This document shows, piece after piece, positions 23,863-43,697 of a stretch of 64,000 bases of DNA. Position numbers and translations under genes: made by a program. Each line of letters starts with the position of its first letter. Positions within the stretch are counted from its first letter, which is position 1. The notes beneath the pieces are model-generated. The model saw only the letters and a program-made list of their open reading frames with translations, made no database searches and was not told the DNA's origin. Source of the DNA: an uncultured Desulfobacteraceae bacterium (GTDB taxonomy: Bacteria > Desulfobacterota > Desulfobacteria > Desulfobacterales > JALSRD01); the NCBI GenBank assembly GCA_964476595.1, contig CAYZCL010000154.1:903-64902 (forward strand), written 5' to 3'.

Positions 23863-24732
23863 ATGTCCAGAGTTGTCAAATGCGCGCACATACAGGCAGC
23901 CAACGCACGTTCTGACGGATCGCCGGAAGAGATCAAGACGGCCATGATCGAAAAGCACATCCCGCTGATCGAAGAAGCCGGGAAACAGGGGGTCAACATC
24001 CTCTGCCTGCAAGAGATTTTTCATGGCCCCTATTTTTGCTGCGAGCAGGACATCAAGTGGTATGCCACGGCCGAGGAAGTGCCCGGCCCCATCACTGCCC
24101 GCATGGCCGAGTACGCCCGCAAGTACAAAATGGTTATGATCGTGCCCGTTTACGAGATGGCGATGGAGGGCGTCTACTATAATACGGCCGCCGTCATCGA
24201 CGCCGACGGCAGCTACCTGGGCAAGTTCCGCAAGATCCATATTCCCCACACCTGGCCTGGATTCTGGGAAAAATTTTACTTCAAGCCCGGCAATCTGGGT
24301 TTTCCGGTGTTCGAGACGGCTTATGCCAGAATCGGCGTCTTTATCTGTTACGATCGCCATTTCCCGGAATGCGCCCGTATCCTGGCCCTCAACGGAGCCG
24401 AAATTCTTTTCAATCCTTCGGCCACTACGGCCGGCAAGTCCCAGTACCTGTGGGAACTGGAGCAACCCGCCCAGGCCGTGGCAAACGGCGTATTCATCGG
24501 GGCCAACAATCGCGTGGGGCTGGAAAAGCCTTGGGAATTCGGCCGTTTCTATGGCTCCAGCTATTTCGTCGATCCGCGTGGCGAAATGCTGGCCAAGGGT
24601 TCGGAGGACGCCGACGAGGTGGTGGTTGCCGACCTGGATCTGGACCTGATCCGCGAGGTGCGTGACGGTTGGCAGTTTTTCCGTGACCGGCGTCCCGAGA
24701 TGTACGATGAAATTTGCGACTACCTTCCCTGA
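23863..24732 (+). CDS. Nitrilase-superfamily carbamoylase (beta-ureidopropionase / N-carbamoyl-D-amino-acid hydrolase type)
   Basis: Start is ATG 23863 (RBS GGGGAGGGG). CN-hydrolase Glu, Lys and Cys contexts: LCLQEIF, FRKIHIP and GVFICYDRHFPE. It strongly resembles eukaryote-type beta-alanine synthase. Confidence 0.8.
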   Translation: MSRVVKCAHIQAANARSDGSPEEIKTAMIEKHIPLIEEAGKQGVNILCLQEIFHGPYFCCEQDIKWYATAEEVPGPITARMAEYARKYKMVMIVPVYEMAMEGVYYNTAAVIDADGSYLGKFRKIHIPHTWPGFWEKFYFKPGNLGFPVFETAYARIGVFICYDRHFPECARILALNGAEILFNPSATTAGKSQYLWELEQPAQAVANGVFIGANNRVGLEKPWEFGRFYGSSYFVDPRGEMLAKGSEDADEVVVADLDLDLIREVRDGWQFFRDRRPEMYDEICDYLP

Positions 24733-24833
24733 TACGAAGGGGGGAATGCGATTGTGACGGTGGTGCCGATGCGGACTTTGCGTCCCCACGGCCCTGTATT
24801 CATAAGGAACCAAACCAGGGAGGAAATGAAAGC

Positions 24834-27850: not shown

Positions 27851-30511
27851 TCATGACAGTATTTTTGCGAGAATTTTTCCAAGCTCATCGATTTTAAACG
27901 GTTTCATCAGCAACTTCCGGATGCCGATATCACGTGCCACCTCCTCGTTGATCCGTTCGCTGTATCCGGTACATAAGACGATGGGGATATCCGGTCGAAC
28001 ACGGAGAATCTCTCTGGACAAAACGTCTCCCGTCATCCCCGGCATGGTCATGTCGGTGATGACGGCGTCATACCGTTGCGGCGCCGCCAGAAAAAGATTC
28101 AGCGCCAACGTTCCATTCGTGCTGGTATCGACTTCGTAGCCAAGATTCTCAAGGATTTCCTTTCCCACTTCCACCAGAGCCTGCTCGTCGTCAGCCAGCA
28201 GGATTCGGCCTGATTTGGCCACAGGGGTTTCGGGGATAGAGGTTTCCTGGTCTGGGGGCGCATCTCCGACATGCGGCAGGAAAACGTGAATGCGGGTCCC
28301 CTCACCGACACGGCTTTCGATGGATAGCCAACCGCCGTGGTTTTGGACAATCCCATGCACCGTCGATAGCCCGAGACCGGTACCCTCGCCCTTTTTCTTG
28401 GTCGTAAAATAGGGTTCAAAAATTCGCTCTATGTTTTCAGGAGAGATGCCGCACCCCGTGTCCGCCACGGTCAAATGCACATATGCACCCCTCTTGTAAT
28501 CAAGAGGTTTTCCCGCTTCACTTCCATTAACGGTGGCCGTTTTGAGGGTCACTGACAATGCACCGCCTTCCTGCTGCATGGCGTGATAGGCATTTGTACA
28601 CAGATTCATGACGACCTGGTGAATTTGTGTGGGATCTCCCCGGACTTTGCATTCGGGATCGATTTTGTGGCTGAGATAGATATTGCTGGGAATGGTCGAT
28701 CGAATCAGTTTCAATGCCTCTTTCACAATAAGGCCGACATCGATGACCCGTTTTTCCGGATCTGTGTGACGACTGAATGTCAATATTTGGTTAACCAGCG
28801 CCTTTGCCCGTTCACTTGCCTCCAAAACCCGTTGTAATTTGGATTTCAATTCTTCATTTTTGCCCAACAATTGGTACGTGATCTCGGTGTACCCCATGAT
28901 GGCGGAAAGAATATTGTTGAAGTCATGGGCAATGCCCCCGGCCAAGGTGCCGATGGCCTCCATTTTCTGGGCCTGGAGCAATCTTGACTGCAAAATTTCC
29001 TGTTCCTTATACGCTTTACGGCTTTCGGTGATATCTCTGACAATTTGCACCATTCCCGACATCCGTTGGTCGACAATAGGCAGGGGCAGGGACTTGATTT
29101 CCAGGTATCGCCCGCTTCGTTCATGGTAGATTTCCTCGGCGGTACCATTGTCGGGCCCTGAATCTTCAGGAGGTTGCGCGACGTCCTTCCCTGAAGAGGT
29201 ACAGCGGGTGAGATCTCTGCAGCGTTTCTCCAAAAAGCCCTTCAGCCATGGTTCCAAAGAGGATTTCAAAGCCCTGTTCGAAAGGACGATTTGACAGTTG
29301 GAATCATGGATGGCGATGCCTTCATCAATCGTATCAAAGGCTATTTCCCATTCCCTTTTAACAACGGTGATCCGCTTGTTGATGGTTTCAAGGCGAAATA
29401 CATGTGACAGAAAAAACGCGATACAGATGGACAGGAGCAGCGCAGTGGGTTCAAACCATAAGTTGGCACCGGCAAACAGGGCAAAAGAGACCAACAAACT
29501 GGCAGTGATGGCAAAAGACCAGACAAGGGCAGCCTTTCGGATGCCGACATCGGCGAACACAACAAATACAATGAGGCCCATGATCAGTATGTTGGCCCGC
29601 TGGATCCAGTCGGACAGCCGGCGAATCCCGCTATGGTCCAGCAGGTTGTTGACAATCGTGGCCTGCACCTCGACACCGGCGGTTTTGTCCCGGGTGGTCG
29701 AAAATGGCGTTAACAGACCTTCTCCGAGGCCTTTTGCCGTCAGGCCTACCAGCACGATTTTATTCTTGAAGAAAGACGTGGGATAATGGCCGTTGATGAC
29801 GTCGGCCATGGAAACAGGGGCGATGCTTCGACTGGGGCCGTAAAAGTTGATAGCGGCATAATCCCTCTGGAGTATTTCATTTCGGGTCTCGACCGGTGAC
29901 TGGCGGGTGCGCAGCCGGGGTTGGCGCGGAAGTGCCTGTCCGCTCACAAGTTCGTAAATTACCGAGGCGAAAGACGGTACCTCCCTGTCGCTCCGGTATA
30001 GGGTGTGAAAAACGCCCCGAACGATACCGTCGATACCCTGATCAACATGAACATGACCGACTCTCGTTCGTGAAAAAAGCGGCCGTGGAGCGGAAACTTT
30101 GCCATGGTTTCCTATATACATGGCCAGCACGATGTGATCCGATCGGCCCAGGGCTTTGGCAAAAACGGAGTCGCTTTTCGACGACTCGCTAAAAAGAAGA
30201 TCGAAACCGATGACATCTGCCAAACGCAACCGACTGACAAGGTCGGCATAATAAGACCTGTCAAGGGGCCACCGGCCCAATTGGGATAAAGTGCCTTCGT
30301 CAATGGCGACAATCACCATTCGTGAATCCGGGACCCTCTTGCCTCTGATTCTGAAAAATAGATCATAAAAATAATTGTCACTTCCGACAAAGGCTCCCAA
30401 GTACTCCATCAACAATAGGATGAGCACAGCCAACAACATCACCAGAATGTAACGAATATTCAGGTTGTTGAATTCAGACAATCCCAGTATATCTTGAATT
30501 TTCGTGGACAT
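27851..30511 (-). CDS. CHASE2-domain hybrid sensor histidine kinase (CHASE2, TMs, PAS, HisKA, HATPase, receiver)
   Basis: 886 aa. CHASE2 hallmarks: VIVAIDEGTLSQLGRWPLDRSYYADLVSRL...IGFDLLFSE. H-box AGGIAHDFNNIL. ATPase box GTGLGLS. C-terminal receiver: RILLADDEQ...VITDMTMPGMTG. The gene is visibly richer in A+T than its surroundings. Confidence 0.9.
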   Translation of the reverse strand: MSTKIQDILGLSEFNNLNIRYILVMLLAVLILLLMEYLGAFVGSDNYFYDLFFRIRGKRVPDSRMVIVAIDEGTLSQLGRWPLDRSYYADLVSRLRLADVIGFDLLFSESSKSDSVFAKALGRSDHIVLAMYIGNHGKVSAPRPLFSRTRVGHVHVDQGIDGIVRGVFHTLYRSDREVPSFASVIYELVSGQALPRQPRLRTRQSPVETRNEILQRDYAAINFYGPSRSIAPVSMADVINGHYPTSFFKNKIVLVGLTAKGLGEGLLTPFSTTRDKTAGVEVQATIVNNLLDHSGIRRLSDWIQRANILIMGLIVFVVFADVGIRKAALVWSFAITASLLVSFALFAGANLWFEPTALLLSICIAFFLSHVFRLETINKRITVVKREWEIAFDTIDEGIAIHDSNCQIVLSNRALKSSLEPWLKGFLEKRCRDLTRCTSSGKDVAQPPEDSGPDNGTAEEIYHERSGRYLEIKSLPLPIVDQRMSGMVQIVRDITESRKAYKEQEILQSRLLQAQKMEAIGTLAGGIAHDFNNILSAIMGYTEITYQLLGKNEELKSKLQRVLEASERAKALVNQILTFSRHTDPEKRVIDVGLIVKEALKLIRSTIPSNIYLSHKIDPECKVRGDPTQIHQVVMNLCTNAYHAMQQEGGALSVTLKTATVNGSEAGKPLDYKRGAYVHLTVADTGCGISPENIERIFEPYFTTKKKGEGTGLGLSTVHGIVQNHGGWLSIESRVGEGTRIHVFLPHVGDAPPDQETSIPETPVAKSGRILLADDEQALVEVGKEILENLGYEVDTSTNGTLALNLFLAAPQRYDAVITDMTMPGMTGDVLSREILRVRPDIPIVLCTGYSERINEEVARDIGIRKLLMKPFKIDELGKILAKILS

Positions 30512-30521
30512 ACTCGTCTGC

Positions 30522-32177
30522 CTACAAGCCGGGAGTTAACAAAAAAAGGATCACTGCGGCCGGGATCCATTTGGCGTATGGATTTTTGATTTCAAAACAC
30601 TGGGGTTTTGAAAATTTTCCCTGCACACCATGGGAGTCGATACTGCTGATTCGGACGTAATATGTACCGGCCTTTTGGGGTCTTGGAAAAGAAAGTTGCG
30701 GCATTTTGGTTTTTTCATCGATGATGATCGATTGAAATGCCGCGTCCCTTGCGACCTGGACCCGATAGTGGAAGTTTGGGCCGACATCCCGCCACTGCCA
30801 TTCGATCCGGTCTTTGTGGACTGCGGGTTTGCCCATTTGGGGGGATGCAGGCAACGGAGCCATTTCAAAGGATATCGAATTGCTCCATTTTCCCCGGAAG
30901 CGGTCTTCCGCTATGGATCTGATCCTGAAATAATAGACGGACGGCGGCAATTTTTCCAGACGGTAGACATGCGGCCGGAAATTATCAATGTCGGCAGCGA
31001 GATTGTGGAATTCGGGGTCCCGGGAAACTTGCAGATGGTAACTGCGAGCATCGAGAACACGCATCCAGCGCAGTGAAATGCTCTGTCCATAGATACGGGC
31101 GCCATTGCGGGGAAACCGGACAAAAGGGGCCATGGGGTTGACTCGCAGCGAAAACCGCAGGGGGAGAGATGCGGGGCCCTCGAGTCCGAACTTGTCGATG
31201 GATCGGCTGCGCAGAAAATATGTACCGTCTTCCAGGTCCCTGAGCAAAAGCCCCTCGCCGGGCACAATGGTCTTATTGAACACGAGTTTTCTGAAATCTT
31301 TCTGCCTCGCCAGTTCAACCCTGTACTGTTCGGCACCGTCGACCGGCGCAAATTCGATTCGGATGGGAAGAGAACGGTACAACGTTTCGCGGGCCTTTCC
31401 GGAAGGGGGAGGCAGCAGCTCGACCGGAGAAAGCGGCGCCTGCCCCTTTGCCACCAGCGTCCCCTGCATGCGCCGGAGTTTGACTCTTTTCCCCCGGGCG
31501 ATGACGTCTACCCGGCCTCCCAAGACCTCGCAACGCATGTTTTCCGAAACATCCACGTCGGTACGAAAATGGGTTCCCCGGGCAGCGGCAATGGCCGAGG
31601 GCGTTTTGATCTTGTATCGCGTTTTCTGGCCGGTCTTGTCGCGGAAACGCAAGATGGCTTTGCCGGCCTCCAGGAAGAATTCAAGTATTTGCTGGATTTT
31701 GCTTAGCTTGCGGGATTCTTTGAGGCAAAATTGGGTGTTCTGGCGCAACAAAACCGAGCGTCCATCCCCGAAGCGAATTTCGACCGAAGCCCTGTCTCCT
31801 GTTCGAATCGTGTCTCCCGGATAAACCAGCAGGTTCACCCCGACCGGTGCCCACTGTTTGCTGGACCGTTCGCGGTGGGTGACGTCACCGGCAATGAAAG
31901 TCACCTTACCCGGAATCGTCGTTCCCTGCAGCAATTCAATCGGAATTTTGAGCTTTTGCCCTGGGAAGATACGGGCCGGTTTTTTCAGTCCGTTGATCGC
32001 TGCAACCTTTGGCCAGTCCTTAGAATTTTTCAGATAAATGTTACAGATATCGTAGAGGTTCTCTCCCGCCTTCACCGTGATTTCAATGGTCGGGTGCTCA
32101 CCGGCGACGGCGTTGGCGAAAAAGGAAAAGATGCATAGCGATAGAAAACAGGAAAAAAAGATTACGGCTGACTTCAT
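30522..32177 (-). CDS. Secreted LysM plus FecR-domain protein with C-terminal Ig/FN3-like repeats and a hydrophobic tail
   Basis: 551 aa. Signal peptide MKSAVIFFSCFLSLCIFSFFANA. LysM region ITVKAGENLYDICNIY...PGQKLKIP. FecR-like region GKVTFIAGDVTHRE...GDTIRTGDRASVEIRFGDGRSVLLRQNTQF. The stop lies 10 nt upstream of the CHASE2 kinase start. Confidence 0.85.
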   Translation of the reverse strand: MKSAVIFFSCFLSLCIFSFFANAVAGEHPTIEITVKAGENLYDICNIYLKNSKDWPKVAAINGLKKPARIFPGQKLKIPIELLQGTTIPGKVTFIAGDVTHRERSSKQWAPVGVNLLVYPGDTIRTGDRASVEIRFGDGRSVLLRQNTQFCLKESRKLSKIQQILEFFLEAGKAILRFRDKTGQKTRYKIKTPSAIAAARGTHFRTDVDVSENMRCEVLGGRVDVIARGKRVKLRRMQGTLVAKGQAPLSPVELLPPPSGKARETLYRSLPIRIEFAPVDGAEQYRVELARQKDFRKLVFNKTIVPGEGLLLRDLEDGTYFLRSRSIDKFGLEGPASLPLRFSLRVNPMAPFVRFPRNGARIYGQSISLRWMRVLDARSYHLQVSRDPEFHNLAADIDNFRPHVYRLEKLPPSVYYFRIRSIAEDRFRGKWSNSISFEMAPLPASPQMGKPAVHKDRIEWQWRDVGPNFHYRVQVARDAAFQSIIIDEKTKMPQLSFPRPQKAGTYYVRISSIDSHGVQGKFSKPQCFEIKNPYAKWIPAAVILFLLTPGL

Positions 32178-33176
32178 TGTGACCCCCTGATCGCCTGGTC
32201 GGCGGACAATGAACCCCGTTGTGCAATCCTCAGCCCTGGAGCAAGGGATTTACAAGTGTTCCACATGGTAACACCCAGCATGGCCCCGGCCCCGCCATAC
32301 GCGCATGCCAAGCCTATGGAGCGGTAGTCAACATCTCCCGACCATCAAAGAGGCTCCTCTGATAGGAAACGAGCGTCTTTGGGCTCCCGGATCAAAGTGT
32401 TTTCCCGTGAGAGGGTCACGAGATGGCTGCCCGTGCCATGATAGGAAGGCATGCCGATTCGCCAGAACTGGGATTGAAAGACTCCCCAAAAAAGATTTCT
32501 CAATTATATATTTAATTTAAGAAAACAGCACGCCATCCGGCGCTGACGTGCCCTGACATGTACGAAGAGGTTTTCCGGACGGGCATCGGTGTGGAATTTT
32601 CAGAGAAAGATTCAGGGTAAGCCCATTTACGATCCGGTTTCCGCCAAAGCCAAAATCATCCATATTCACCATCGCCCCAATGACACCCCGAAACCAATCA
32701 TTTTCAGACCCGGTTTTCAAGTAAAGACTTCGCGGCTTGAATCACTTCAGTCCGTCGCGGGAATACCCCTGGTCTGGTAGCCGCGCTTCCTGTGATTGCA
32801 TCCATGGGCACGGCAGAACGGCTTCGATCTGACAGCGTCATTCTGGGGTCAACATGTCAAATAGTCGTTTGAGTGTCAAGGGTTATGTAAATACAATATG
32901 TTGGAGCAGATTTCGTCTCCGGCCAACATGGGCGGGAGCACTTTTCCCGGTGAATGTTTTGAATGCCTTTCGAGGTGATTTTTGCACATCGCTTCACGAT
33001 TTTTCAGGAAACCCGTATATCGCCGGAGCAGACTTTTGGGAGGGTGGTATTGTTTAATGCATTGAATTAAAATGTAATTAGGCTCTCTCCTTTTGGAAAT
33101 GCACAATTGATTTATATTGAAATTGGAGAAAAATACCCTTGTATAAAGAAAACCCAGCACCGGCGAGATTTCTTTT

Positions 33177-33518
33177 TCAGCGGTACTGGGTGTTGGGGTC
33201 TTCCAGGATGCCGGGCAACCGGCATGGCCACCGCGAAAACTGGGAAATCCTACAAACAGCTGGGTCCTCAAACTGAGTGAAAGTCTTCTGGATTCCGGCC
33301 TCGTAGATCCTGTCCAGCATCCGGGCCCGGTTGTCGTCGCACAAACGCGCCGGATCGACGCTCGTGCCCAGCGGCAGGTCCGTGTCGTTTTCGGCAAATG
33401 CATCTTTGGTACAACGGCGTACGCCCCGAGAACGTGTCGAGCACCATGGCCATGACCGCCAGCCCCGCAGAGAGCCGCACCCGGCTGTCGACCATGGCAT
33501 CCACCGAAGCCGTTCCAC
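33177..33518 (-). pseudogene. Remnant of an IS1634-family (DUF4277-type N-terminus) transposase gene, frameshifted and truncated
   Basis: Two overlapping minus-strand frames together read ...VSAGLAVMAMVLDTFSGRTPLY / ...DAFAENDTDLPLGTSVDPARLCDDNRARMLDRIYEAGIQKTFTQF... From memory, this matches the conserved N-terminal region of IS1634-type transposases (..AVKAMILNGLGF..RPLY ... LNDDRLGRALDxLYEAG.TxLF). No DDE domain follows. Confidence 0.55.
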
Positions 33519-33555
33519 GTATGGGCGCAGAGGCGGCGGGTTATTATTTGCCGTT

Positions 33556-34938
33556 TTAATAGGGAAACGCGATTCCCATTTCGAAAAGTTCGTCCTTCAC
33601 ACGTCGGTAAAGGCTCTCGTGTGCATCAGTGGGTAATGCTTTGGCCACGTCGTAGCACTCCTGGTACGTACTGCCCAGGGGCGCCGTGGCGGCCTGGTCC
33701 TCGTACCTGGAGAGCAGTTTGAGGGCGATTTCGTTGGCCTCGGACAGGGTCATACCCTGGCGCGCCACGGCGTGGCCCACCTCGGCGCCCAGGCGCGCCT
33801 CCAGGGGGGTGGCGCGGTTGCGGTGCTTGTTGCGCGTGGATGCCATTTCCCACAGGTGCCAGCCGGTGACGGTGCTCACCAGGGCATGGCAGGCGGTCTC
33901 GTAGAAGAGCATTTCGGTCATGGGGCCGGCATTGGCGAAGCCGTTGGAAGTATAGAGCAGATTGCTGTTGCGCGAAAGGGCCTGGCCGGCCACGGCGATG
34001 GGCCATAGCAGTTCGCGGGTGGTGTTGGAACCGTAGTTGAGGTGGAAGGGGAAGTGCTGGTTGAAGACGGCCCCGTGAACCACCAGGCCCATCAGGCTGT
34101 AGGCCACCAGTGTTACAGCGATACCCTCGGATCCGCCACACCAGCCGCCGTAGATGGGGCCGGTCAGGTGGCCGGTGTAGCAGCCGTACTGAGCGTAGTG
34201 CACGGCGCGGTTGAGGAGCGTATCGGCGGTCTTGAACTCGGTCAGTCCGCCCACCAGGCGCGCGTCGGTGGTGCGCACGCCCCACTCGTTGTTAGACACG
34301 GCGATCTGTCCGCTGTCGTGTTCGGCCGTGCCCACGGCCACCAGGAAAGTCCCCGGTCGCCCCAGCTGTCGCGCCGCCAGGCGCAGGTTGTAGATGTGCT
34401 GGATGCAGCCGTTGATCTCGGTGGGGCCGCCCGAAGAGATCAGCTGCCCCATGGACTCTTCCAGGATGGGCGCGCAGAATCCGTCCAGCAGCGGTTCGCG
34501 CAGATAGGCCAGGCACATCGAGTAGTGCAGGTTTTCGTCGCAGGTGATGTCCGGGCTGAGGATGCACAGCGGCGGCTCGGGGTCTTCCACCTGCCGGTGC
34601 TTCCAGAAAACGGCGTCCTTGCCCTCGCCGACCCAGTAGGCTCCCCTGGCGTGGTAGAGGGCCTCGCGGATCTCGTCGTCGCCGACCATGATCATACGGT
34701 GGCTGTCGGTGTTGTAGACTCCCACCTCGCGGAACAGGTCCCAGCCGGCCTGCCACACGCGGTCGGCCAGATCGGGATCGTCGGGCACCGGCGTCTGCGG
34801 GTCGCAGCGGATTTCGTACTGCTTGATGATTTTTTTCAGGGTAGGTGTGAAACGCCGGGGCAGAAAATCGTCCTCCTCCATGTGGGGTCCGGTGCCGCAG
34901 CGTTCGATCATTTCCCAGAGCTTGTAGACGGTGGTCAT
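33556..34938 (-). CDS. MtmB-family (monomethylamine methyltransferase-like) protein lacking pyrrolysine
   Basis: 460 aa and uninterrupted. By eye it is collinear with Methanosarcina MtmB as I remember it. Examples: AGWDLFREVGVYNTDSHRMI vs AGFEMLLECGIYCTDTHRIV; PIYGGWCGG vs PIFGGYAGG; GSNTTRELL vs GSTNTRETL; and the C-terminus GSTYQECYDV vs GKTFQECYDV. After the shared GRPG motif, the Pyl position is a sense codon (GTG at 34339-34341). Confidence 0.85.
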   Translation of the reverse strand: MTTVYKLWEMIERCGTGPHMEEDDFLPRRFTPTLKKIIKQYEIRCDPQTPVPDDPDLADRVWQAGWDLFREVGVYNTDSHRMIMVGDDEIREALYHARGAYWVGEGKDAVFWKHRQVEDPEPPLCILSPDITCDENLHYSMCLAYLREPLLDGFCAPILEESMGQLISSGGPTEINGCIQHIYNLRLAARQLGRPGTFLVAVGTAEHDSGQIAVSNNEWGVRTTDARLVGGLTEFKTADTLLNRAVHYAQYGCYTGHLTGPIYGGWCGGSEGIAVTLVAYSLMGLVVHGAVFNQHFPFHLNYGSNTTRELLWPIAVAGQALSRNSNLLYTSNGFANAGPMTEMLFYETACHALVSTVTGWHLWEMASTRNKHRNRATPLEARLGAEVGHAVARQGMTLSEANEIALKLLSRYEDQAATAPLGSTYQECYDVAKALPTDAHESLYRRVKDELFEMGIAFPY

Positions 34939-34953
34939 GTTTTCTTTCCTCTA

Positions 34954-35586
34954 TTATTTCAGCAGCGTCGCCATCTGTTCGGGGGCGGCGTTGGCGTCCT
35001 CGCAGTACAGGTCCGCGCCGATCATGTCGGCCCACTCCTGGCTGGCGGGGGCGCCGCCGATCACGACCTTGTACTTGTCGCGCAGGCCCTTGTCCTTCAG
35101 GAACTGGATGATCTCCTTCTGGCGGGGCATGGTGGTGGTCATCAGCGAAGAGGCCCCGATGAAGTCGGCGCCCATTTCCTCTGCCGCCTTGATGAAATCC
35201 AAGGGGTCCACGTCGTAGCCCAGATCACGGACCTCGAAGCCGTTGATCTCCAGCATGAGCTTGACGATGTTCTTGCCGATCTCGTGCAGGTCGCCGCGTA
35301 CCACCCCCAGCACCACCCTGCCCCGGACCTCCGCGTCGCGGCTGCTCTCGAGCATGCGCGGACGGGTGATGTCCACCACCGCCATGAGGGCCTCGCCGGC
35401 CATCATGACCTCGGGCAGGAAGATGTCCAGGTTGGCGAACTGTTCCCCCACACGCTGCATGGTGCGGGTCAGGGTGTCCAGAATGTCCAGGGGGTCGACC
35501 CCTTCGGCCAGCAGTTTGTGGGCCAGTTCCTCGCTCTGTTCCTTCTCTCCGCTCTCCACCAGTTTGTCCAGTTGTTCCAGTGACAT
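34954..35586 (-). CDS. Cobalamin-binding corrinoid protein (MtmC/MtbC/MttC-like, B12-binding_2 plus B12-binding)
   Basis: 210 aa. DxHxxG motif GDLHEIGKNIV, then a Rossmann-like B12 domain (IGASSLMTTTM, KVVIGGAP). It lies 15 nt upstream of the MtmB-like gene on the same strand. Confidence 0.9.
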   Translation of the reverse strand: MSLEQLDKLVESGEKEQSEELAHKLLAEGVDPLDILDTLTRTMQRVGEQFANLDIFLPEVMMAGEALMAVVDITRPRMLESSRDAEVRGRVVLGVVRGDLHEIGKNIVKLMLEINGFEVRDLGYDVDPLDFIKAAEEMGADFIGASSLMTTTMPRQKEIIQFLKDKGLRDKYKVVIGGAPASQEWADMIGADLYCEDANAAPEQMATLLK

Positions 35587-35690
35587 GTCGATCCTCCAGA
35601 TCAGATGATTCCCGCCGCCGGCGCGGCGATGCTGATCGATCAGTAATATATCACAAATATGATGTCAACATATTAAATGATGTATCAGGC

Positions 35691-35719
35691 TTGACAGGTG
35701 CCGGCTCCCCCTTTATGAT
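35691..35719 (+). promoter_or_regulatory. Sigma-70-type promoter for the GntR gene
   Basis: TTGACA (35691-35696), a 17-nt spacer, then TATGAT (35714-35719), about 27 nt upstream of ATG 35746. Confidence 0.5.
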
Positions 35720-35745
35720 GGGTTGCCATCATGCGGAGGGGGGCC

Positions 35746-36378
35746 ATGCAGAAAGGCGAAGTGTACGAACAGCTGCGGTCGAAGATCATCACCAACCGGA
35801 TTCGCCCCGGTGAGATCCTCACCGAGAAGGATCTCATCGCCGAATACGGTATCGGGCGCACACCGCTGCGCGACGTGCTGATGAAGCTTCAGGAGGAGAA
35901 GCTCATCCGCACCATTCCACGCATGGGCTCCATGGTGACACCGCTGGACATGGCCGAGATGCGGGAACTGGTGGAGGTGCGACGTGAACTGGAGGGGTTT
36001 GCCGCCCGACTGGCGGCCGAACGCATCTCGTCGCAACAGCTCGACACCCTGCGCGGCATCCTGCAGGAGGCCACCGAGCAGTTTCGCGACGAGCGCCGGG
36101 TGGACAATATCTCGGACTACTTCGACACGCGCTTTCACCATGTGTTGTACGAGGCGGCTGGCAACGGCAAGCTGGTGGAGATCCTGCAGAAACTGCACGT
36201 CCAGATGCTGCGGCTGTGGTTCTCGCTGGGGTTCAGGACCATTCCCTTCGCCAGCCAGTCCGACAGCCTCTACGCCCTGCTCGAGGCCGTGGCGCAGCGG
36301 GACGGCGCCGCCGCCCGCGTTGCCATGCAGCAGCACATCGACCTCTACGCCGCCCGCCTCAAGGAACGATTTCTCTAG
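35746..36378 (+). CDS. GntR-family transcriptional regulator (FadR/FCD subfamily)
   Basis: Start is ATG 35746 (RBS GGAGGGGGG). The N-terminal wHTH is YEQLRSKIITNRIRPGEILTEKDLIAEYGIGRTPLRDVLMKLQEEKLI. The C-terminal helical FCD-like domain includes FHHVLYEAAGN. Confidence 0.85.
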   Translation: MQKGEVYEQLRSKIITNRIRPGEILTEKDLIAEYGIGRTPLRDVLMKLQEEKLIRTIPRMGSMVTPLDMAEMRELVEVRRELEGFAARLAAERISSQQLDTLRGILQEATEQFRDERRVDNISDYFDTRFHHVLYEAAGNGKLVEILQKLHVQMLRLWFSLGFRTIPFASQSDSLYALLEAVAQRDGAAARVAMQQHIDLYAARLKERFL

Positions 36379-36418
36379 CGTTCGCGCGCCTCTCGTGTCC
36401 GCCGGGTCGGGAAAAGCG

Positions 36419-37129
36419 CTACTTTCTGCGTTTCGACTGCCGGAACTGGCAGTTTTTCAGGCCGCACGCGTCGCATTTGGCGGCGGGCGGGCGTTCGCGG
36501 GCGGGGCCCAGGGGGGCCAGGAACGAAATGGATTTTACCGGGGTCATCACCAGGCTGTCGTTGAGGGTGACGCCGATGGCGCCGGCGTCTGTCAGGGTGA
36601 AGATGAGGCGCTGGGCTTCGACCGGGAAGCCGTTGAGCCCCGGCCCGAGGCGACAGCCGCAGAAGAGGCCCCGTTTCGCCGCCCGCCGGGACAGTTCCCC
36701 GTGAAGAATTTCGCCCAGCCGGTCCAGCAGGGCGACCCCCACGGCGTCCATGAGCGTGGCGGTGTAGAGGTCCCCGCCGCGGGTCAGCTCCCGGCTGTGC
36801 GCTTCCAGGCCCGGCCCCAGGGTGCCCACCACAGCGGCCAGGTAGACGTTTTGCGGCCCGCACAGCGCCGCCCCGCCGGTCAGGACGGCGCCATCGGCCA
36901 GCACGATGTCGCCGCCGGGTATCGTTTCGACAATGGGGTGCAGGCCTACGGCGGCCGCCGGCCGGATCAGCCGCAGACCCGCTGCGGCGGCCGCGGCGAT
37001 GCGCTCCCGGGTGCCGGGGTCGGGCACGTACTGCGCTCCACCGAAGTAGCGTGCCACCTGGTCGGGTCGGACCGCCAGATCGGCGGGATTATAGCGCACG
37101 ATGTCGCGTTGGACGGACGGTGGTTTCAT
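36419..37129 (-). CDS. Methionine-synthase activation-domain-like (Met_synt_B12-like) protein
   Basis: Start set at ATG 37129 (MKPPSVQRDIVRY...). The pattern VARYFG..., LMDAVGVALLDRL, RLGPGLNGFPVEAQRLIFTLTDAGAIGVTLNDSLVMTPVKSISFLAPLG matches the small stand-alone MetH activation-region proteins found beside corrinoid methyltransferase genes. C-terminal motif CDACGLKNC. Confidence 0.65.
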   Translation of the reverse strand: MKPPSVQRDIVRYNPADLAVRPDQVARYFGGAQYVPDPGTRERIAAAAAAGLRLIRPAAAVGLHPIVETIPGGDIVLADGAVLTGGAALCGPQNVYLAAVVGTLGPGLEAHSRELTRGGDLYTATLMDAVGVALLDRLGEILHGELSRRAAKRGLFCGCRLGPGLNGFPVEAQRLIFTLTDAGAIGVTLNDSLVMTPVKSISFLAPLGPARERPPAAKCDACGLKNCQFRQSKRRK

Positions 37130-37438
37130 GACCGGAAATTCCTGCGGTGGTGTGAGTGTCGTATGAGGTCCGGCAGACTGCGAACCGGCCCCCTCCGTGT
37201 CCCGCGGCCGGGCGTCCAGCGTCCGCCCCACGGGTGCAGGCCGAATATACGCCCCCGGACGTGTTACGGCAAATGATTTTGTAATTGCCCCTGGGGACGA
37301 TAAAGGTTATTGAGGCTGTCGGAGCGCAGCCGAAGAGCGCCTTCGGCGGAGACGACGGGAGAGGGGGTGGTATGCTTTCCTGTACGACACGACTCCCGCA
37401 GTGTGGTTTTATTCTGACACCGGATTGCTGAATCGCTC

Positions 37439-37918
37439 ATGAAAGTCATTTTCGTGGAACTGGACCGTTGCCTGGCCTGCCGGAGCTGCGAGCGGGTGTG
37501 CTCCTTCCAGGAGACCGGCGGGTTCAAACGGGAAAATTCGAACATCTGGGTGCACGTGGACCTGGACCGGCGGTCTATTTTCACCATGACCTGTCTGCAG
37601 TGCGAAACCGCCATGTGCCTCGAAATCTGCCCGGTCGAAGCCATCCGGCGAGACCCCCGCACCCATGCCGTGGTGGTGGACGAAGCCCGCTGCGTGGGTT
37701 GCCGCATGTGTGTGCCGGCCTGCCCCTTCGGCAATATCCACTTCGAGAACCGGCGCCACGTGGCCGTCAAGTGCGACCTGTGCGGCGGCGACCCCCAGTG
37801 TGTCAGGAACTGCATGGCCGGTGCGCTGCACTACGCCGACATCAACGAACTGGCCGAAATCAAGCGCCGGCGCATGGACGGCCTGCTGGTGCAGCGCGAG
37901 GAGGGCCGTTCCCGGTGA
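37439..37918 (+). CDS. Multi-cluster [4Fe-4S] ferredoxin (HycB/DmsB-like)
   Basis: 159 aa. Cys motifs CLACRSCERVC, CLQCETAMCLEICP, CVGCRMCVPACP and CDLCGG..QCVRNC. Confidence 0.85.
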   Translation: MKVIFVELDRCLACRSCERVCSFQETGGFKRENSNIWVHVDLDRRSIFTMTCLQCETAMCLEICPVEAIRRDPRTHAVVVDEARCVGCRMCVPACPFGNIHFENRRHVAVKCDLCGGDPQCVRNCMAGALHYADINELAEIKRRRMDGLLVQREEGRSR

Positions 37919-39984
37919 ATACCCGCCCGATCATCGAAAACGGCGTGATCCCCACCTTGTGCCGCATGTGCGACACGCGCTGCGCCATCGATGTGCATCT
38001 CAAGGATGGAGTCATCTCCGACATTACACCCTTTCAGGGGCACCAGGTCAACCACGGCCGCATGTGCCCGCGGGCCACGGCGGCCATCGACCAGTTCTAC
38101 CACCCCCGGCGCATCACGACGCCGCTCAAACGCAAACCCGACGGCAGTTTCGAAAAGATCTCCCGCGAACAGGCCCTGGACGAGATCGCGGACAGGATGG
38201 CGGCCCTGAAGGAGGCCTACGGGGCCCGGAGCGTGGGGTTCTGGAAAGGGGAGGGGGTGGGCTTCGCCCAGCAGGAGCAGTACGTGCGGCGTTTCGCCCA
38301 CGCCTTCGGTTCGCCCAATTATTTCTCCAATGACTCGGCCTGTTACAACGGGCGCTACCTGGGACACAGTTTGGTTTTCGGTTTCTGGAACCCTTTTCCG
38401 CGCTTCACCGAGGCCGGGCTCATCCTGCTTTTCGGCACCAACCCGCCCATGTGCCACCCGCCCTTCATGCGTGAGTTCGCCGACGCCCGCGCCCGCGGCG
38501 CCAAGCTGGTGGTCATCGATCCGCGCCTCAACCCGGTGGCCTGCTATGCCGACATCTTCGCCCAGCCCTATCCCGGCACCGACGGCGCCTTGGGCTGGGG
38601 CCTGATCCGCTATCTCATAGAGCGCCGCAGCTACGACCACGAGTTGGTGGAGCGCTTCTCGGTGGGTTTCGGACGCCTGGCCCGTTACGCCCGTCGTTTC
38701 ACGCCGGAGGTCGTCGAGCAGGAGACCGGCATCTACAAGGATGTGCTGGTGCAGATCGCCGAGATGATCATCAAGTACAGCCCGCATGTCAGCATCTTCA
38801 CCGGCGCCGGCCTGGAACACCACGAAAACGGGGTCAACAACATCCGCACCCTGGCATCCCTGGGCTGCCTGTGCGGGGCGCTGGACCGCGGCTGCGGCTT
38901 CTTCTGGCCCGATCCGTTCCCCGGCCGCCGGCTGGAGCTTTACGAGGAGCTGCCCCTGGAGGACCAGGGTCCCATCGGGGCGAACCGCTTTCCGGTGCTT
39001 TACGAGAAGCGCAGGGAGTGCCACAGCATGACGGCCATGGACTACATGCTGGGCGACGGCGACTACCGGCTCCGGGGGCTGGTCATGACGGCCGCCAACC
39101 CCGCCGTGACCAACCCCAACACGGCCAAGGTGGAAAGGGCCCTGTCCGGCCTGGATCTGCTGGTGGTCAACGATTTTTTCATGACCCCCACGGCACGCCT
39201 GGCCCACTACATCCTGCCGGCGGCCACCTTCCTGGAACGCTCCGAACTGCATTGCCACATCAAGTACCAGTTGGTCACCTTGGCCCGCAGGGTACTGGAG
39301 GTGCCCGGCATCCGGGACGAATACATGCTCTGGCACGACCTGGCCCACCGGCTGGGATTCGGACGGCAGTACTTCCCGTGGGAGAGCGAAGAGGAGGTCA
39401 CCCGCTGGATCCTGGAGCCCACCGGCATTTCCCTGGAAGACCTGGCGGCGCACCCCGAGGGGATCGTCTACAAGCCGGTGCGCTACCTCAAGTACAGGCA
39501 GCGACCGCTGCCCACCCCCTCGGGCAAGATCGAGTTCGCCTCGGCCTACCTCGCCGACAAGGGGCTGAGCGAACTCCCCGAGTACACTCCACCTTACCAC
39601 CGCCGGCGGGCGGGCGGTGAATACCCCTTCGTGCTCACCACGGGTGCGCGCATGTCGCTGTTCTACCACTCCCGCCACCAGAACATCCCGCGCTTTCGCA
39701 CCGTGCACCCGGCCGCCGTGGTCGAGATGCACCCGGACGACGCCGCCGAGCTGGGCGTGCGCAACGGCCAGCGCGTGCGCATCGTCTCTCGGGCCGGCAG
39801 CCTGGAGATCGCCGTGTGCATCGTGCATCCTTCCGAGCTGCGCCGGGGCGTGGTCGAGGTCTACCACGGGTGGGAAAAATGGCGCGTCAACCGGGTGACC
39901 TGCGACGACGTCAACGATCCCATCAGCGGGTTCCCGCTGCTCAAGGGGGTTCCCGTGCGCATCGAACCCATACAGGACCCGTGA
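37915..39984 (+). CDS. Second cytoplasmic molybdopterin (MopB-family) oxidoreductase, substrate unknown
   Basis: The tracked ORF (37468-39984) overlaps the ferredoxin gene out of frame. The real start is most likely GTG 37915, overlapping the ferredoxin TGA (GTGA). N-terminal Fe-S motif CRMCDTRCAIDV. No Tat signal. Candidate ligand region SPNYFSNDSACYNG. C-terminal beta-barrel-like region GQRVRIVSRAGSLEIAV. Confidence 0.85.
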   Translation: MNTRPIIENGVIPTLCRMCDTRCAIDVHLKDGVISDITPFQGHQVNHGRMCPRATAAIDQFYHPRRITTPLKRKPDGSFEKISREQALDEIADRMAALKEAYGARSVGFWKGEGVGFAQQEQYVRRFAHAFGSPNYFSNDSACYNGRYLGHSLVFGFWNPFPRFTEAGLILLFGTNPPMCHPPFMREFADARARGAKLVVIDPRLNPVACYADIFAQPYPGTDGALGWGLIRYLIERRSYDHELVERFSVGFGRLARYARRFTPEVVEQETGIYKDVLVQIAEMIIKYSPHVSIFTGAGLEHHENGVNNIRTLASLGCLCGALDRGCGFFWPDPFPGRRLELYEELPLEDQGPIGANRFPVLYEKRRECHSMTAMDYMLGDGDYRLRGLVMTAANPAVTNPNTAKVERALSGLDLLVVNDFFMTPTARLAHYILPAATFLERSELHCHIKYQLVTLARRVLEVPGIRDEYMLWHDLAHRLGFGRQYFPWESEEEVTRWILEPTGISLEDLAAHPEGIVYKPVRYLKYRQRPLPTPSGKIEFASAYLADKGLSELPEYTPPYHRRRAGGEYPFVLTTGARMSLFYHSRHQNIPRFRTVHPAAVVEMHPDDAAELGVRNGQRVRIVSRAGSLEIAVCIVHPSELRRGVVEVYHGWEKWRVNRVTCDDVNDPISGFPLLKGVPVRIEPIQDP

Positions 39985-40239: not shown

Positions 40240-41064
40240 ATGAGTGAAGGAACCGTCGCCCATCGCCGCAGGCCCGCCTGGCGCACCTTGATCCGGTCGC
40301 CGTGGATGGACGTTCTGCAGTACGCCTTGGTGCTGGCCGGCGTGGCCTGGTTCTTTGCGCGCGGCACCACCCGCATGGGTTACAACTGGCAGTGGTACCA
40401 GGTGCCGCAGTACATCTTCCGGGTGGTCGACGGGCATTTCCAGGCCGGCCCCCTGTGGGACGGCCTGATAGTGACCCTGCGCATATCGGGGATCAGCCTC
40501 CTGCTGGCCTTCCTCATCGGGCTGGTCACCGCCCTGGCGCGGCTGTCCCACTCTTTCGTGGCGCAGACCTGTGCCCGGCTCTACCTGGAGCTGATCCGCA
40601 ACACGCCCCTGCTGATCCAGATCTTCTTCATCTACTTCGTGCTGGGACCGGTGCTGGGCCTGAGCCGCTTTCCCTCGGCGGTGCTGGCCCTGAGCCTCTT
40701 CGAGGGCGCCTACGCCTCGGAGATCCTGCGGGCCGGCATCGTTTCCATTCACCGTGGACAGTGGGAGGCGGCCTACAGCCTGGGACTCGGCACGTTCGAT
40801 ATCTACCGCGACATCATCATGCCCCAGGCCATCCGGCGCATCCTGCCGCCGCTGACCAGCCAGGCCATTTCGCTGGTCAAGGACTCGGCCCTGGTGAGCA
40901 CCATCGCCATCTACGACCTGACCATGCAGGCCCAGGCCGTGATATCGGAAACCTTCCTGACTTTCGAGCTGTGGTTCACGGTGGCCGGTATGTACCTGAT
41001 GGTCACCGTGACGCTGTCGCTGGTCGTCAACATCATGGAAAACCGGCTGCGGGTGGTCGGTTGA
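40240..41064 (+). CDS. Polar amino-acid-type ABC transporter permease (HisM/GlnP family)
   Basis: 274 aa, multi-TM. EAA-loop region [32 protein letters not shown]. Confidence 0.85.
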
Positions 41065-41089
41065 ACGAAACGCATTTTTCAGGAGCATC

Positions 41090-41842
<753 letters not shown>

Positions 41843-41903
41843 GGGCCGCCGGCGGGTTCGATTTATCTGTTTCATTTCACCTATCAGCGAAAGGAGGCGT
41901 GGT

Positions 41904-42734
41904 ATGAAGAAGAGGCGAACCTGGCCGGTAATCCTGGCGGTGGTGTTGAGTCTGAGCCTGAGCGGAGCGGCCCTGGCCGGCAAGCTGCAGCAGCAGCTGG
42001 TCCAGGAGAGCACCATCGAACACATCATGAAGCGCGGTGTCATGCGGGTGGGCATGGACACCTTCGTGCCCTGGGCCATGAAGGACAAGACCGGCAAGTT
42101 CATCGGCTTCGAGATCGACGTCGCCACCCAGCTGGCCAAGGACATGGGCGTCAAGGTGGAGTTCGTGCCCACCAAGTGGGCCGGGATCATCCCGGCGCTG
42201 CTGACCGGAAAGTTCGACGTCATCATCGGCGGCATGGGCATCCGGCCCAAGCGCGCGCTGAAGGTCAATTTCACGCTGCCCTACGACTACTCGGGTATGT
42301 CCATCGTGGCCAGCAAGAAACTGGCCGCCGGCTTCCACTCGCTGGCGGACTTCAACAAGCCCGACGTGCAGATCGCCTGCAAGCTGGGCACCACGGCCGC
42401 CATGGCCGCCAAGAAGTTCATTCCCAAGGCCAAGCTGCGCCTCTTCGACGACGAGACCCAGGCTTACCAGGAACTGCGCAACGGCAACGTGCACGCCGTG
42501 GTGGGATCGGCGCCGCGGCCGGCCTTCGAGGCCGTCACCTACCCGGAAACGCTCTTCATGCCGCTGAAGGAAAATTTCACCAAGGAGCCCATCGCATTCG
42601 CCCTGCGCAAGGGCGACTTCGACACGCTGACCTTTTTCAACAGCTGGATCATCCTCAAGACCGACACCGGCTGGCTCAAGGAGCGCCACCACTACTGGTT
42701 CGAGACCCGCGACTGGGCCGGCAAACTGGAGTAG
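41904..42734 (+). CDS. Family-3 periplasmic solute-binding protein
   Basis: Signal peptide MKKRRTWPVILAVVLSLSLSGAALA. Body: MRVGMDTFVPWAMKDKTGKFIGFEIDVATQLAKDMG...WAGIIPALLTGKFDVIIGGM. Confidence 0.85.
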   Translation: MKKRRTWPVILAVVLSLSLSGAALAGKLQQQLVQESTIEHIMKRGVMRVGMDTFVPWAMKDKTGKFIGFEIDVATQLAKDMGVKVEFVPTKWAGIIPALLTGKFDVIIGGMGIRPKRALKVNFTLPYDYSGMSIVASKKLAAGFHSLADFNKPDVQIACKLGTTAAMAAKKFIPKAKLRLFDDETQAYQELRNGNVHAVVGSAPRPAFEAVTYPETLFMPLKENFTKEPIAFALRKGDFDTLTFFNSWIILKTDTGWLKERHHYWFETRDWAGKLE

Positions 42735-42806
42735 CCGCCCCGATGCCCGCGGGCCGGCGTCCCCTCGCCGGCCCACGGGCCGTTTCATGGAACGCCCCGG
42801 GAAGAA

Positions 42807-43697
42807 TTGCGCGTGTATCGTAAGAAGACCCGCATAACGGCCCTGGACCTGGTGCTCATGGCGCTCATCCTGGCCGTGCTGAGCTACATCGGCTACCGCC
42901 TGACGGTGAAGCTCAACTACAAGTGGAACTGGCCGGCCATCCCGCGCTACCTGCTCTACTACAGCAGCGAGCACCACGCCTGGATGTCGGGCATCCTGCT
43001 CGAGGGCCTGTACACCACCATCCGCCTGAGCGTCTGGGCCACCCTGATCGCGGCGCTGCTGGGCCTGGTCACCGGCATCATGCGCGCCACCGGCGGCCTG
43101 TTCAGCCGCATGATGGCCCGCACTTACGTGGAGCTGATCCGCAACGTGCCCCCGCTGGTGCTGGTCTTCATCTTCTACTTCTTCTTCAGCGCCCAGATCA
43201 TGCCCCTGCTGGGCGTGGAGGATTTCATCCGCTCGCGCTCCCCGGCCGCCCAGCGCTGGCTGGCGGTGTTTTTCGCCACGCCGGATGTCTTCAGCGCCTT
43301 TCTCTCGGGCACCATCACGGTGGCCGTTTTCCAAGGGGCCTACATTACCGAGATCGTGCGTGCCGGGATCCAGTCCATCGAGCGGGGACAGTGGGAGGCG
43401 GCTTACGCTCTGGGCCTTTCGTGGCCCCGGCAGATGTGGGATGTGGTGCTGCCCCAGGCCCTGCGGCGCATCCTGCCGGCCTTGGCCAACGAGTTCATCA
43501 ACACCATCAAGTACTCCGCCATCGTTTCCATCATCTCCATCCAGGAACTCACCTTCCAGGGCATGCAGATCATGGCCAGCACCCAGATGACCATCGAAGT
43601 GTGGCTGGTGGTCACCGCCATGTACCTGGTGCTCTGCCTGGTGCTGTCGGTGGGGGTGCAGTGGCTGGAGCAGCGCCTGGCCCGCAGCGATGCCTGA
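42807..43697 (+). CDS. Second polar amino-acid-type ABC transporter permease
   Basis: 296 aa. EAA-loop region [31 protein letters not shown]. The start codon is uncertain (TTG 42807 or GTG 42813). Confidence 0.85.
   Translation: MRVYRKKTRITALDLVLMALILAVLSYIGYRLTVKLNYKWNWPAIPRYLLYYSSEHHAWMSGILLEGLYTTIRLSVWATLIAALLGLVTGIMRATGGLFSRMMARTYVELIRNVPPLVLVFIFYFFFSAQIMPLLGVEDFIRSRSPAAQRWLAVFFATPDVFSAFLSGTITVAVFQGAYITEIVRAGIQSIERGQWEAAYALGLSWPRQMWDVVLPQALRRILPALANEFINTIKYSAIVSIISIQELTFQGMQIMASTQMTIEVWLVVTAMYLVLCLVLSVGVQWLEQRLARSDA

Follow-up and report, generated by a model that had tools for sequence, protein, structure and literature searches.

A 64-kb stretch of DNA from an uncultured Desulfobacteraceae bacterium (contig CAYZCL010000154.1; this whole stretch is called the window below) carries a gene pair for an MtmB-family protein without pyrrolysine (Pyl) and a corrinoid protein. 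With high confidence, we regard this pair as a functional non-Pyl module of a methyl donor:corrinoid protein methyltransferase (MT1) and its corrinoid carrier, belonging to a clade distinct from that of MtqB, the sole characterized non-Pyl MtmB. The full explanation that we develop for the pair, which includes a histidine-derived methyl donor, is given a little less than an even chance of being correct. The locus comprises the following features:

33556-34938, minus strand: non-pyrrolysine MtmB-family methyltransferase, the predicted MT1, 460 amino acids (aa) (PF05369, 1NTH/1L2Q match, AlphaFold2 model)
34339-34341, minus strand: codon GTG for Val200 at the position of Pyl202 in MtmB, inside the clade-invariant VAVGTAEHD (alignments and codon reading)
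34954-35586, minus strand: cognate corrinoid protein with cap and B12-binding Rossmann domain, 210 aa (PF02607, PF02310)
35587-35730, no strand: divergent promoter region of 144 nt, with a palindrome and a sigma-70-like promoter
35731-36378, plus strand: GntR-family regulator with FCD ligand domain, divergent from the corrinoid/MtmB-like operon (PF00392 and PF07729)
36419-37129, minus strand: stand-alone protein resembling the MetH activation domain, TM0269-like, 236 aa (PF02965, profile match to 1J6R)

Family, fold, and pyrrolysine position of the MtmB-like protein

An initial annotation of the locus, made by eye from the sequence, had described the 460-aa protein as an MtmB homologue that is collinear with the archaeal enzyme, and profile searches bore this out. 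PF05369 matched with 290.3 bits (cut-off 25; E 3.3e-86), with residues 7-455 aligned to positions 3-449 of the 450 in the model, and it was the sole Pfam match, the MttB and MtbB models giving nothing at E<=0.01. NCBIfam contained no model covering the protein. A phmmer search of the PDB matched Methanosarcina barkeri MtmB (1L2Q/1NTH) at E 9.6e-51 over residues 8-458 versus 10-458, and in this alignment LGSTYQECYDV of the window protein stands opposite AGKTFQECYDV, and GRPGTFLVAVGTAE opposite GRPGMGVXGPETS, in which X is Pyl. The valine codon that had been assigned to the Pyl position was located correctly, and the reading frame is uninterrupted, with 0 internal stops and no in-frame UAG. This valine is invariant across the bacterial clade. 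An AlphaFold2 model, for which 60 diverse homologues served as input, reached a pLDDT of 95.3 and a pTM of 0.94, and Foldseek aligned it with 1L2Q/1NTH at a TM score of 0.95 and a root-mean-square deviation of 1.3-1.4 Å over 454 columns, compared to a TM score of only ~0.5 for MttB and MtgB. Val200 forms the end of barrel strand 198-200 in the model, and Pyl202 likewise ends a strand in MtmB.

The window protein and M. barkeri MtmB thus share PF05369, the TIM-barrel fold, collinearity from residue 8 to the C-terminus, and the GRPG and QECYDV motifs, and each is encoded beside a corrinoid protein with a DxHxxG motif. However, the window protein is only 27% identical to MtmB, has Val in place of Pyl202, and comes from a bacterium rather than a methanogen. 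The pyrrolysine of MtmB is reported, by Hao and colleagues in 2002, to activate methylamine through its electrophilic imine. Since Val replaces pyrrolysine, monomethylamine cannot be activated through a pyrroline adduct, and a methylamine activated in this way, as in MtmB, cannot be the substrate of the window protein.

The clade to which the protein belongs is large and well conserved. Close relatives form more than 120 database clusters with 72-83% identity, all of 460 aa, and orthologues with 72-95% identity are present in at least 80 species-representative genomes of Desulfobacterales, Desulfobulbaceae, and Spirochaetes. The Desulfobacterales among them include the Olavius Delta-1 symbiont and a cultured strain, Desulfocicer vacuolatum DSM 3385. 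When a library was clustered at 50% identity, only one representative, at 52%, was more than 37% identical to the window protein. A neighbor-joining tree placed the clade far from the branch of M. barkeri MtmB, whose nearest clade (P0268, P0291, and P0267) consists of Methanomassiliicoccales-type proteins. The sister group of the window clade, with ~50% identity, is made up of Bathyarchaeia and Aminicenantes, and has Gln (Bathyarchaeia) or Val (Aminicenantes P0181) at the Pyl position. Over 106 orthologue clusters, 132 of the 460 positions are invariant, among them VAVGTAEHD near residue 200 as well as seven His, four Trp, and three Cys. The ratio of nonsynonymous to synonymous substitution rates (dN/dS) was ~0.06-0.15 in most of the Desulfobacterota comparisons made and 0.33 against one Spirochaete locus. 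Such strong constraint argues for a working protein rather than a relic and, together with the close structural match, indicates that the active-site scaffold is not degenerate, a possibility that the initial annotation had left room for.

That annotation had also stated that no substrate was assigned to non-Pyl MtmB proteins. This has been outdated by MtqB of Methanococcoides methylutens Q3c, a non-Pyl MtmB for which tetramethylammonium and choline serve as methyl donors in the methylation of its corrinoid protein (Kashyap et al., Front Microbiol, March 2026; PMC13044021). Docking to MtqB gave -0.2 kcal/mol for monomethylamine and -2.1 to -2.9 kcal/mol for tetramethylammonium and choline, and most non-Pyl clades in a tree of 1,061 sequences are without an assigned function (PMC13044021). 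In 'Ca. Formimonas warabiya' grown on dichloromethane, no protein is induced more strongly than an unrelated non-Pyl MtmB (PMC9768040). The Methanococcoides homologues, which we located via Methanohalobium P0411, are 29% (M. methylutens P0513) and 26% (LMO-2 P0550) identical to the window protein. A corrinoid gene lies upstream of the LMO-2 copy, and none adjoins the MM1 copy of M. methylutens. With 26-29% identity to these homologues, which stand in for the Q3c sequence, and a place in another clade, the window protein is not an MtqB orthologue, so that the earlier label 'unknown substrate' no longer fits non-Pyl MtmBs overall but still fits the window clade. Like MtqB, the window protein is a non-Pyl MtmB-family member paired with its own corrinoid protein, and MtqB provides a precedent for non-Pyl MtmB substrates whose nitrogen is already a good leaving group. 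The two differ in that MtqB feeds coenzyme M through MtbA in a methanogen, whereas the window clade occurs in sulfate reducers and spirochaetes, in the company of amino-acid transporters, hut genes, a molybdenum (Mo) enzyme, and the protein resembling the MetH activation domain.

The database label 'monomethylamine:corrinoid methyltransferase' and the shared fold could be taken to mean that the protein is a genuine monomethylamine methyltransferase that works without pyrrolysine. We give this hardly any credence, as Val200 has no electrophilic imine with which to activate methylamine in the manner of MtmB (PMC9842639), monomethylamine docked so poorly to MtqB (PMC13044021), and the genomic context consists of amino-acid transporters and catabolic genes instead of methylamine-related ones. 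For practical purposes, methylamine use by the window clade is excluded.

The logic of anaerobic demethylation of nitrogen compounds is shared with the non-Pyl systems of the MttB superfamily (MtgB/MtgC/MtgA for glycine betaine, MtpB, MtcB, MtyB, and MthB), which likewise combine a Pyl-free methylamine-methyltransferase relative with a corrinoid protein, a methylcorrinoid:acceptor methyltransferase (MT2), and an activase. In contrast to these, the MT1 of the window clade is of an unrelated sequence family, and the MT2 found in its relatives is of the URO-D type and not pterin-binding. CdmB (chloromethane) and MthB (phosphocholine) were considered as matches and rejected, as they belong to other families.

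Corrinoid operon and gene neighborhoods in related genomes

The corrinoid protein was recognized by PF02607 (53.8 bits) and PF02310 (95.6 bits), and its DxHxxG motif reads DLHEIG (residues 99-104; 35275-35292). It scored 199.9 bits with NCBIfam TIGR02370, below the cut-off of 215.3, and ~190 bits with the MtgC and MtbC models, all below cut-off, which places it in a subgroup related to, but distinct from, the MtmC, MtbC, and MtgC types. As noted initially, 15 nt separate the end of this gene from the ATG of the MtmB-like gene. Both genes have a ribosome-binding site, AGAGGA in the case of the MtmB-like gene, and their arrangement points to a co-transcribed and translationally linked pair. To compare gene neighborhoods, all open reading frames (ORFs) of 84 non-redundant loci were clustered and the recurrent clusters were annotated; 36 of these loci have at least 8 kb on both sides and are referred to as full-flank loci. 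The corrinoid gene lies directly upstream of the MtmB orthologue in 76 of the 84 loci and in all 36 full-flank loci.

The divergent regulator was assigned to the GntR/FCD type from the start, and the Pfam domains agree with this. An imperfect palindrome, AATATGATG-T-CAACATATT, at 35656-35674, between gntR and the corrinoid operon, is a candidate operator, and a sigma-70-like promoter for gntR at 35691-35719 matches the consensus at 11 of 12 positions. An FCD-type GntR protein was found in 9 related loci, and a GntR protein with a UTRA domain (HutC-like) occupies that position in 36 others. Rfam searches at gathering thresholds revealed no riboswitch or other RNA in the window.

The third conserved component is the protein resembling the MetH activation domain, for which a role in corrinoid handling or reactivation had been suggested. 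The PF02965 score is 25.1 bits against a cut-off of 25 for the enclosing 270-aa ORF (36419-37231), NCBIfam has no model for the family, and a profile of 23 orthologues matches PDB entry 1J6R at E 3.4e-9 over profile positions 50-234. 1J6R is Thermotoga maritima TM0269, a stand-alone MetH reactivation protein. According to Huang and colleagues in 2007, TM0269 is said to be needed to reactivate the split methionine synthase TM0268, as a reactivation factor and not as a catalytic methyl donor. The window protein resembles TM0269 in aligning over nearly the whole length and in being a separate polypeptide beside a B12-binding protein. It differs in that its family is linked to a methylotrophic MT1/corrinoid pair instead of MetH, has an additional invariant C-terminal KCxxCxxxxCQFR motif (36440-36478), and, although an R-x-x-P-G is invariant, has Leu, Ile, or Cys at the Tyr position of RxxxGY, the S-adenosylmethionine (SAM)-binding motif of E. 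coli MetH. The gene is present in 30 related loci, mostly directly downstream of the MtmB-like gene, and its product would most naturally serve to return the Co(II) form of the corrinoid protein to the cycle, which makes the suggested reactivation role plausible.

Two layouts are representative of the related loci:

Layout A: RACo and MttB leftward; then, rightward, GntR-UTRA, corrinoid protein, MtmB, MetSynB12-like protein, PadH-like NADH reductase, ferredoxin, Mo enzyme, four ABC genes, URO-D, and thioredoxin (Trx)-like protein
Layout B: RACo, Mo enzyme, ferredoxin, HutH, and HutU leftward; then, rightward, GntR-UTRA, corrinoid protein, MtmB, MetSynB12-like protein, URO-D, Trx-like protein, CobW, and MttB

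The frequencies of the neighbors among the full-flank loci were as follows:

Corrinoid protein: 36/36
ATP-binding cassette (ABC) transporter: 24/36
Non-Pyl MttB paralogue: 23/36
Mo enzyme: 22/36
UTRA-type GntR: 21/36
URO-D: 19/36
MetSynB12-like protein: 17/36
RACo: 13/36
Hut enzymes: 9/36
Hut or HisC-like aminotransferase: 12/36

The related genomes therefore supply what is missing from the window, an MT2 and an activase, as well as a link to histidine catabolism that could not be seen from the window. The neighboring URO-D proteins are of the MtaA/CmuA type and the RACo activase is AcsV/RamA-like. Unlike the MtmB system, the MT2 of these relatives is a shorter URO-D protein that reads FFICG and lacks the His of the HxC zinc motif of MtaA. 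In three loci (L006 12397-13941, L007 12451-14441, and L061 13294-13689), URO-D is followed by a 131-aa CxxC thioredoxin-like protein, with a weak match to the HUIPC family of Trx-like selenoproteins, and a CobW-type GTPase. The mlp clusters of Kountz and Balskus were rejected as a match for these genes, since they contain multiple Mlp URO-D proteins and no MtmB. In layout A, the NADH-flavoprotein and ferredoxin genes directly after the MetSynB12-like gene could supply electrons.

The histidine enzymes were above their family cut-offs: HutH scored 667 bits (TIGR01225, cut-off 539) and has the GASGD motif of the 4-methylideneimidazole-5-one (MIO) group, HutU scored 434 bits (TIGR01228, cut-off 375), HutI 455 bits (TIGR01224, cut-off 298), and the aminotransferase 314 bits with the HisC family model (cut-off 277). 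The lyase was also considered as an ergothionase, which was rejected given its score above the HutH equivalog cut-off and the presence of the ASG MIO motif. HutC was the best model for the UTRA regulator (118 bits), and in spirochaetes the HisC-like aminotransferase adjoins an enzyme resembling indolepyruvate:ferredoxin oxidoreductase. The placement of the hut genes around the pair varies, with at least three arrangements, which speaks against one accidental association that was then inherited, and by a rough estimate the chance of adjacency within 10 kb, for a single-copy operon in a 4-7 Mb genome, is well under 1%.

The SAM-binding-domain homologue that is so tightly linked to the pair, and the lack of an MT2 in the window, could also be explained by a system that runs in the methylating direction, with the Met_synt_B12-like protein loading the corrinoid from SAM and the MtmB-like protein methylating an acceptor. 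This seems very improbable to us, as the operon of the relatives includes MttB (a second protein of the MT1 type), an MtaA-like MT2, an ATP-dependent activase, uptake transporters, and hut genes, which is the layout of a demethylation pathway, and TM0269, the closest solved relative, is reported to be a reactivation factor and not a catalytic methyl donor.

Two side observations concern relatives outside the Desulfobacterota. In two Bathyarchaeia loci (L092 and L093), the MtmB relative lies beside a corrinoid protein and an AIRS/AIRS_C protein (PurM/SelD-like), and in a third (L094) the AIRS gene is ~7 kb away at the edge of the locus; this protein is a possible alternative ATP-dependent partner. 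In six Spirochaete loci (L034, L047, L049, L057, L064, and L073), as many as six MtmB-family paralogues stand in an array, along with genes for a HisC-like aminotransferase and for enzymes resembling indolepyruvate:ferredoxin oxidoreductase, which suggests a methyltransferase family for methylated aromatic or heterocyclic amino acids.

The window itself contains a reduced and rearranged variant of the conserved operon, and its 95%-identical relative L010 has the same layout. It retains the corrinoid-MtmB pair, the MetSynB12-like gene, ferredoxin, Mo enzyme, ABC genes, and an amidohydrolase, and has an FCD instead of a UTRA regulator. The genes on the far side of the MetSynB12-like gene are:

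37439-37918, plus strand: four-cluster ferredoxin-like subunit (Fer4 families)
37915-39984, plus strand: cytoplasmic Mo/tungsten (W) bis-pyranopterin guanine dinucleotide (bis-PGD) oxidoreductase, 689 aa (PF04879, PF00384, PF01568)
40240-43697, plus strand: ABC transporter of the polar/basic amino-acid type, with permease, ATPase, SBP_bac_3 binding protein, and permease (Pfam)
43707-44951, plus strand: amidohydrolase of the Cc2672 type, Xaa-Arg/Lys carboxypeptidase or Xaa-Pro dipeptidase (PF01979)

Among NCBIfam models the ferredoxin-like subunit is most similar to PadI/DmsB-type subunits, and in related loci it co-occurs with the Mo enzyme. The closest PDB matches of the 689-aa Mo enzyme are FdhF of hydrogen-dependent carbon dioxide reductase (HDCR) and acetylene hydratase. 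Its sequence at 38335-38352 reads SACYNG, with Cys-Tyr at the site at which selenocysteine or Cys is followed by His in formate dehydrogenases, so that the Cys metal ligand is kept and Tyr replaces the catalytic His. On account of this Cys-Tyr pair and a score below the formate dehydrogenase cut-off, a canonical formate dehydrogenase was rejected.

The window lacks the remaining components. Pfam scans of ~39 ORFs across the 64 kb revealed no MT2, RamA/RACo, pyl, or hut gene, tblastn with reference proteins found no homologue of the 311- or 358-aa URO-D MT2, RACo, MttB, or Hut proteins, and ARAGORN found no tRNA gene, hence no tRNA-Pyl, in the window. The initial annotation was thus right in stating that no MT2 is visible here, as it was in the family, the missing Pyl, the valine, the corrinoid partner, and the regulator; what has not stood is that no substrate is known for proteins of this kind.

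Candidate methyl donors

We infer the direction of methyl transfer, the class of substrate, and the reactivation step from the architecture and context described above. The corrinoid and MtmB-like proteins would constitute the substrate-specific half of a corrinoid-dependent methyl-transfer system, in which the TIM-barrel enzyme of the MtmB fold, acting as MT1, would take up a methylated nitrogen compound and offer the methyl group to the 210-aa carrier, whose corrinoid is in the Co(I) state. Because there is no pyrroline imine, a good leaving group, for instance a quaternary ammonium or an N-methylimidazolium, must be present in the substrate from the outset. Methylated histidine is the best candidate in view of the association with HutH/U/I, HisC-type transaminases, and HutC-like regulators in the genomes. 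One possible substrate is ring N-methylhistidine, perhaps set free by the Cc2672-like amidohydrolase after the uptake of dipeptides or N-acyl forms. This candidate would need a single demethylation to yield histidine, with an imidazolium as leaving group, and fits loci without MttB, such as the window, as well as the dipeptidase-like amidohydrolase (anserine- or balenine-type precursors). The other is an N-alpha-methylated histidine such as hercynine, which would be handled together with the adjacent MttB paralogues; hercynine-type substrates would fit the frequent MttB neighbors but require demethylation of non-quaternary intermediates. The histidine formed would enter the HutH/HutU/HutI pathway, or be degraded by the HisC-type transaminase and an arylpyruvate:ferredoxin oxidoreductase. 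The discharge of methyl-Co(III) would fall to an MtaA-like URO-D methyltransferase, whose gene lies beside the pair in about half of the related loci and would be located elsewhere in the genome of the window. Oxidized Co(II) would be returned to the cycle by the TM0269-like Met_synt_B12 protein, in relatives together with the RACo activase, and in the window the operon would be regulated by the GntR/FCD protein.

A more far-reaching version of this explanation, which is tentative and has clearly less than an even chance, is that the clade represents the first corrinoid-dependent demethylase for methylated histidine, with a MetH-type SAM-dependent reactivation protein in a catabolic system and a dedicated Mo/W enzyme. 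Its substrate would be ring N-methylhistidine, from anserine, balenine, actin, or ovothiol, or histidine betaine (hercynine, ergothioneine), and the Mo/W enzyme would pre-process a thio-histidine or supply low-potential electrons. The 689-aa enzyme of the window could accordingly be such an electron-input module or a pre-processor of thio-histidines. Our literature searches returned nothing relevant that links hercynine or methylhistidine to corrinoid or cobalamin methyltransferases.

Several points weigh against a histidine-derived methyl donor. The 64-kb window has no hut, hisC-like, URO-D, or RACo gene, the hut link is found in only 25-33% of the full-flank loci, which moreover are phylogenetically related, and the UTRA regulators score below the HutC cut-off. 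The sister-clade contexts that were read (Bathyarchaeia only: P0434 and P0450) show a corrinoid gene and no hut genes. The amidohydrolase and binding protein of the window are at least as Arg/Lys-like as they are His-like, and the conserved Mo enzyme has no explained role in the scheme. Finally, the comparison with MtqB is based on the Methanococcoides homologues P0513 and P0550 and not on Q3c MtqB itself, and the proposed substrate derives from gene context.

The absence of hut genes from the window, and of a hut or hisC-like gene from two-thirds of the full-flank loci, would be more easily understood if the pair acted on a quaternary amine or betaine unrelated to histidine, either tetramethylammonium- or choline-like or another marine osmolyte, with the hut and hisC genes being no more than clustered nitrogen catabolism genes. 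MtqB uses tetramethylammonium and choline, and non-Pyl MttB paralogues, whose characterized relatives demethylate quaternary amines, are present in 23 of the 36 full-flank loci. We nevertheless consider this alternative unlikely, as the identity to the Methanococcoides non-Pyl MtmBs, which are in a different clade, is only 26-29%, the transporters are of the polar amino-acid type and not of a betaine/choline type (OpuA/BCCT), and Hut enzymes occur within 10 kb in 9 of the 36 loci, far above the estimated chance of <1%.

The transporter and the amidohydrolase bear on another alternative, namely that methyl-lysine, methyl-arginine, or a related methylated basic amino acid serves as donor in place of a histidine derivative, being imported by the Lys/Arg/Orn-like ABC transporter and freed from peptides by the amidohydrolase. 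The best matches of the binding protein are to proteins that bind cystine and Lys/Arg/Orn, the nearest relative of the amidohydrolase is the L-arginine carboxypeptidase Cc2672 (PDB 3MTW, E 9e-40), and the module of ABC genes followed by the amidohydrolase recurs in 6 related loci. However, the scores of both proteins are all far below the family cut-offs (for the amidohydrolase, 209 bits with NF051886), so that their specificity cannot be read from them, and it is His-specific enzymes that recur near the pair, not lysine or arginine catabolic genes. A basic amino acid other than histidine is therefore an improbable donor, and methylated histidine remains the candidate that we prefer.

Other genes of the window and implications

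Directly downstream of the MtmB-like gene, a region of ~1.4 kb (32177-33556) contains no convincing gene; in relatives, MetSynB12-like or URO-D genes are found at the matching position. This region is part of a stretch of lower guanine-plus-cytosine content (27851-33556; 0.52-0.54 versus 0.62-0.70 elsewhere), which carries a CHASE2 hybrid histidine kinase and a LysM/FecR protein. Further away, a reductive pyrimidine catabolism cluster (18138-26387) comprises a carbamoylase-like M20 amidase, a dihydropyrimidinase-like amidohydrolase, a uracil/xanthine permease, PreA-like and PreT-like dihydropyrimidine dehydrogenase subunits, and a beta-ureidopropionase-like CN hydrolase. Another cluster (1416-9595) has the appearance of encoding a soluble Mo enzyme complex linked to NAD(P)H: a second Mo/W-bis-PGD oxidoreductase, of 694 aa, is accompanied there by a GltD-like Fe-S flavoprotein of 720 aa, a NuoF-like flavoprotein, and a 2Fe-2S/4Fe-4S protein. 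A histone-deacetylase-family protein beside a hydantoinase/oxoprolinase A-type protein (53994-57103) and an Asp/Glu/hydantoin racemase (59617-60330) are probably further genes for the catabolism of nitrogen heterocycles.

Anoxic sediments and guts harbor very large numbers of non-Pyl relatives of methylamine methyltransferases, and substrates are known for only a handful of MttB relatives and, since 2026, for one MtmB relative. The clade described here is abundant in marine Desulfobacterota and spirochaetes, where it amounts to hundreds of clusters at 90% identity, has a conserved and information-rich operon, and is present in cultured D. vacuolatum DSM 3385. Its enzyme architecture is known; what is new is a substrate hypothesis for the clade and an unusual MetH-like reactivation partner. 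The analysis also corrects the widespread annotation as 'monomethylamine:corrinoid methyltransferase', which inflates the methylamine use inferred for sulfate reducers. The histidine link narrows 'unknown substrate' to a short and testable list. If true, anaerobic methylotrophy would gain a new class of methyl donors, there would be a route for the turnover of methylhistidine or histidine betaine in sediments, and the chemistry of the MtmB fold would be wider than assumed. Methylotrophic growth on these abundant metabolites of animals and algae would then be within reach of marine sulfate reducers and spirochaetes, with histidine passing into the Hut pathway.

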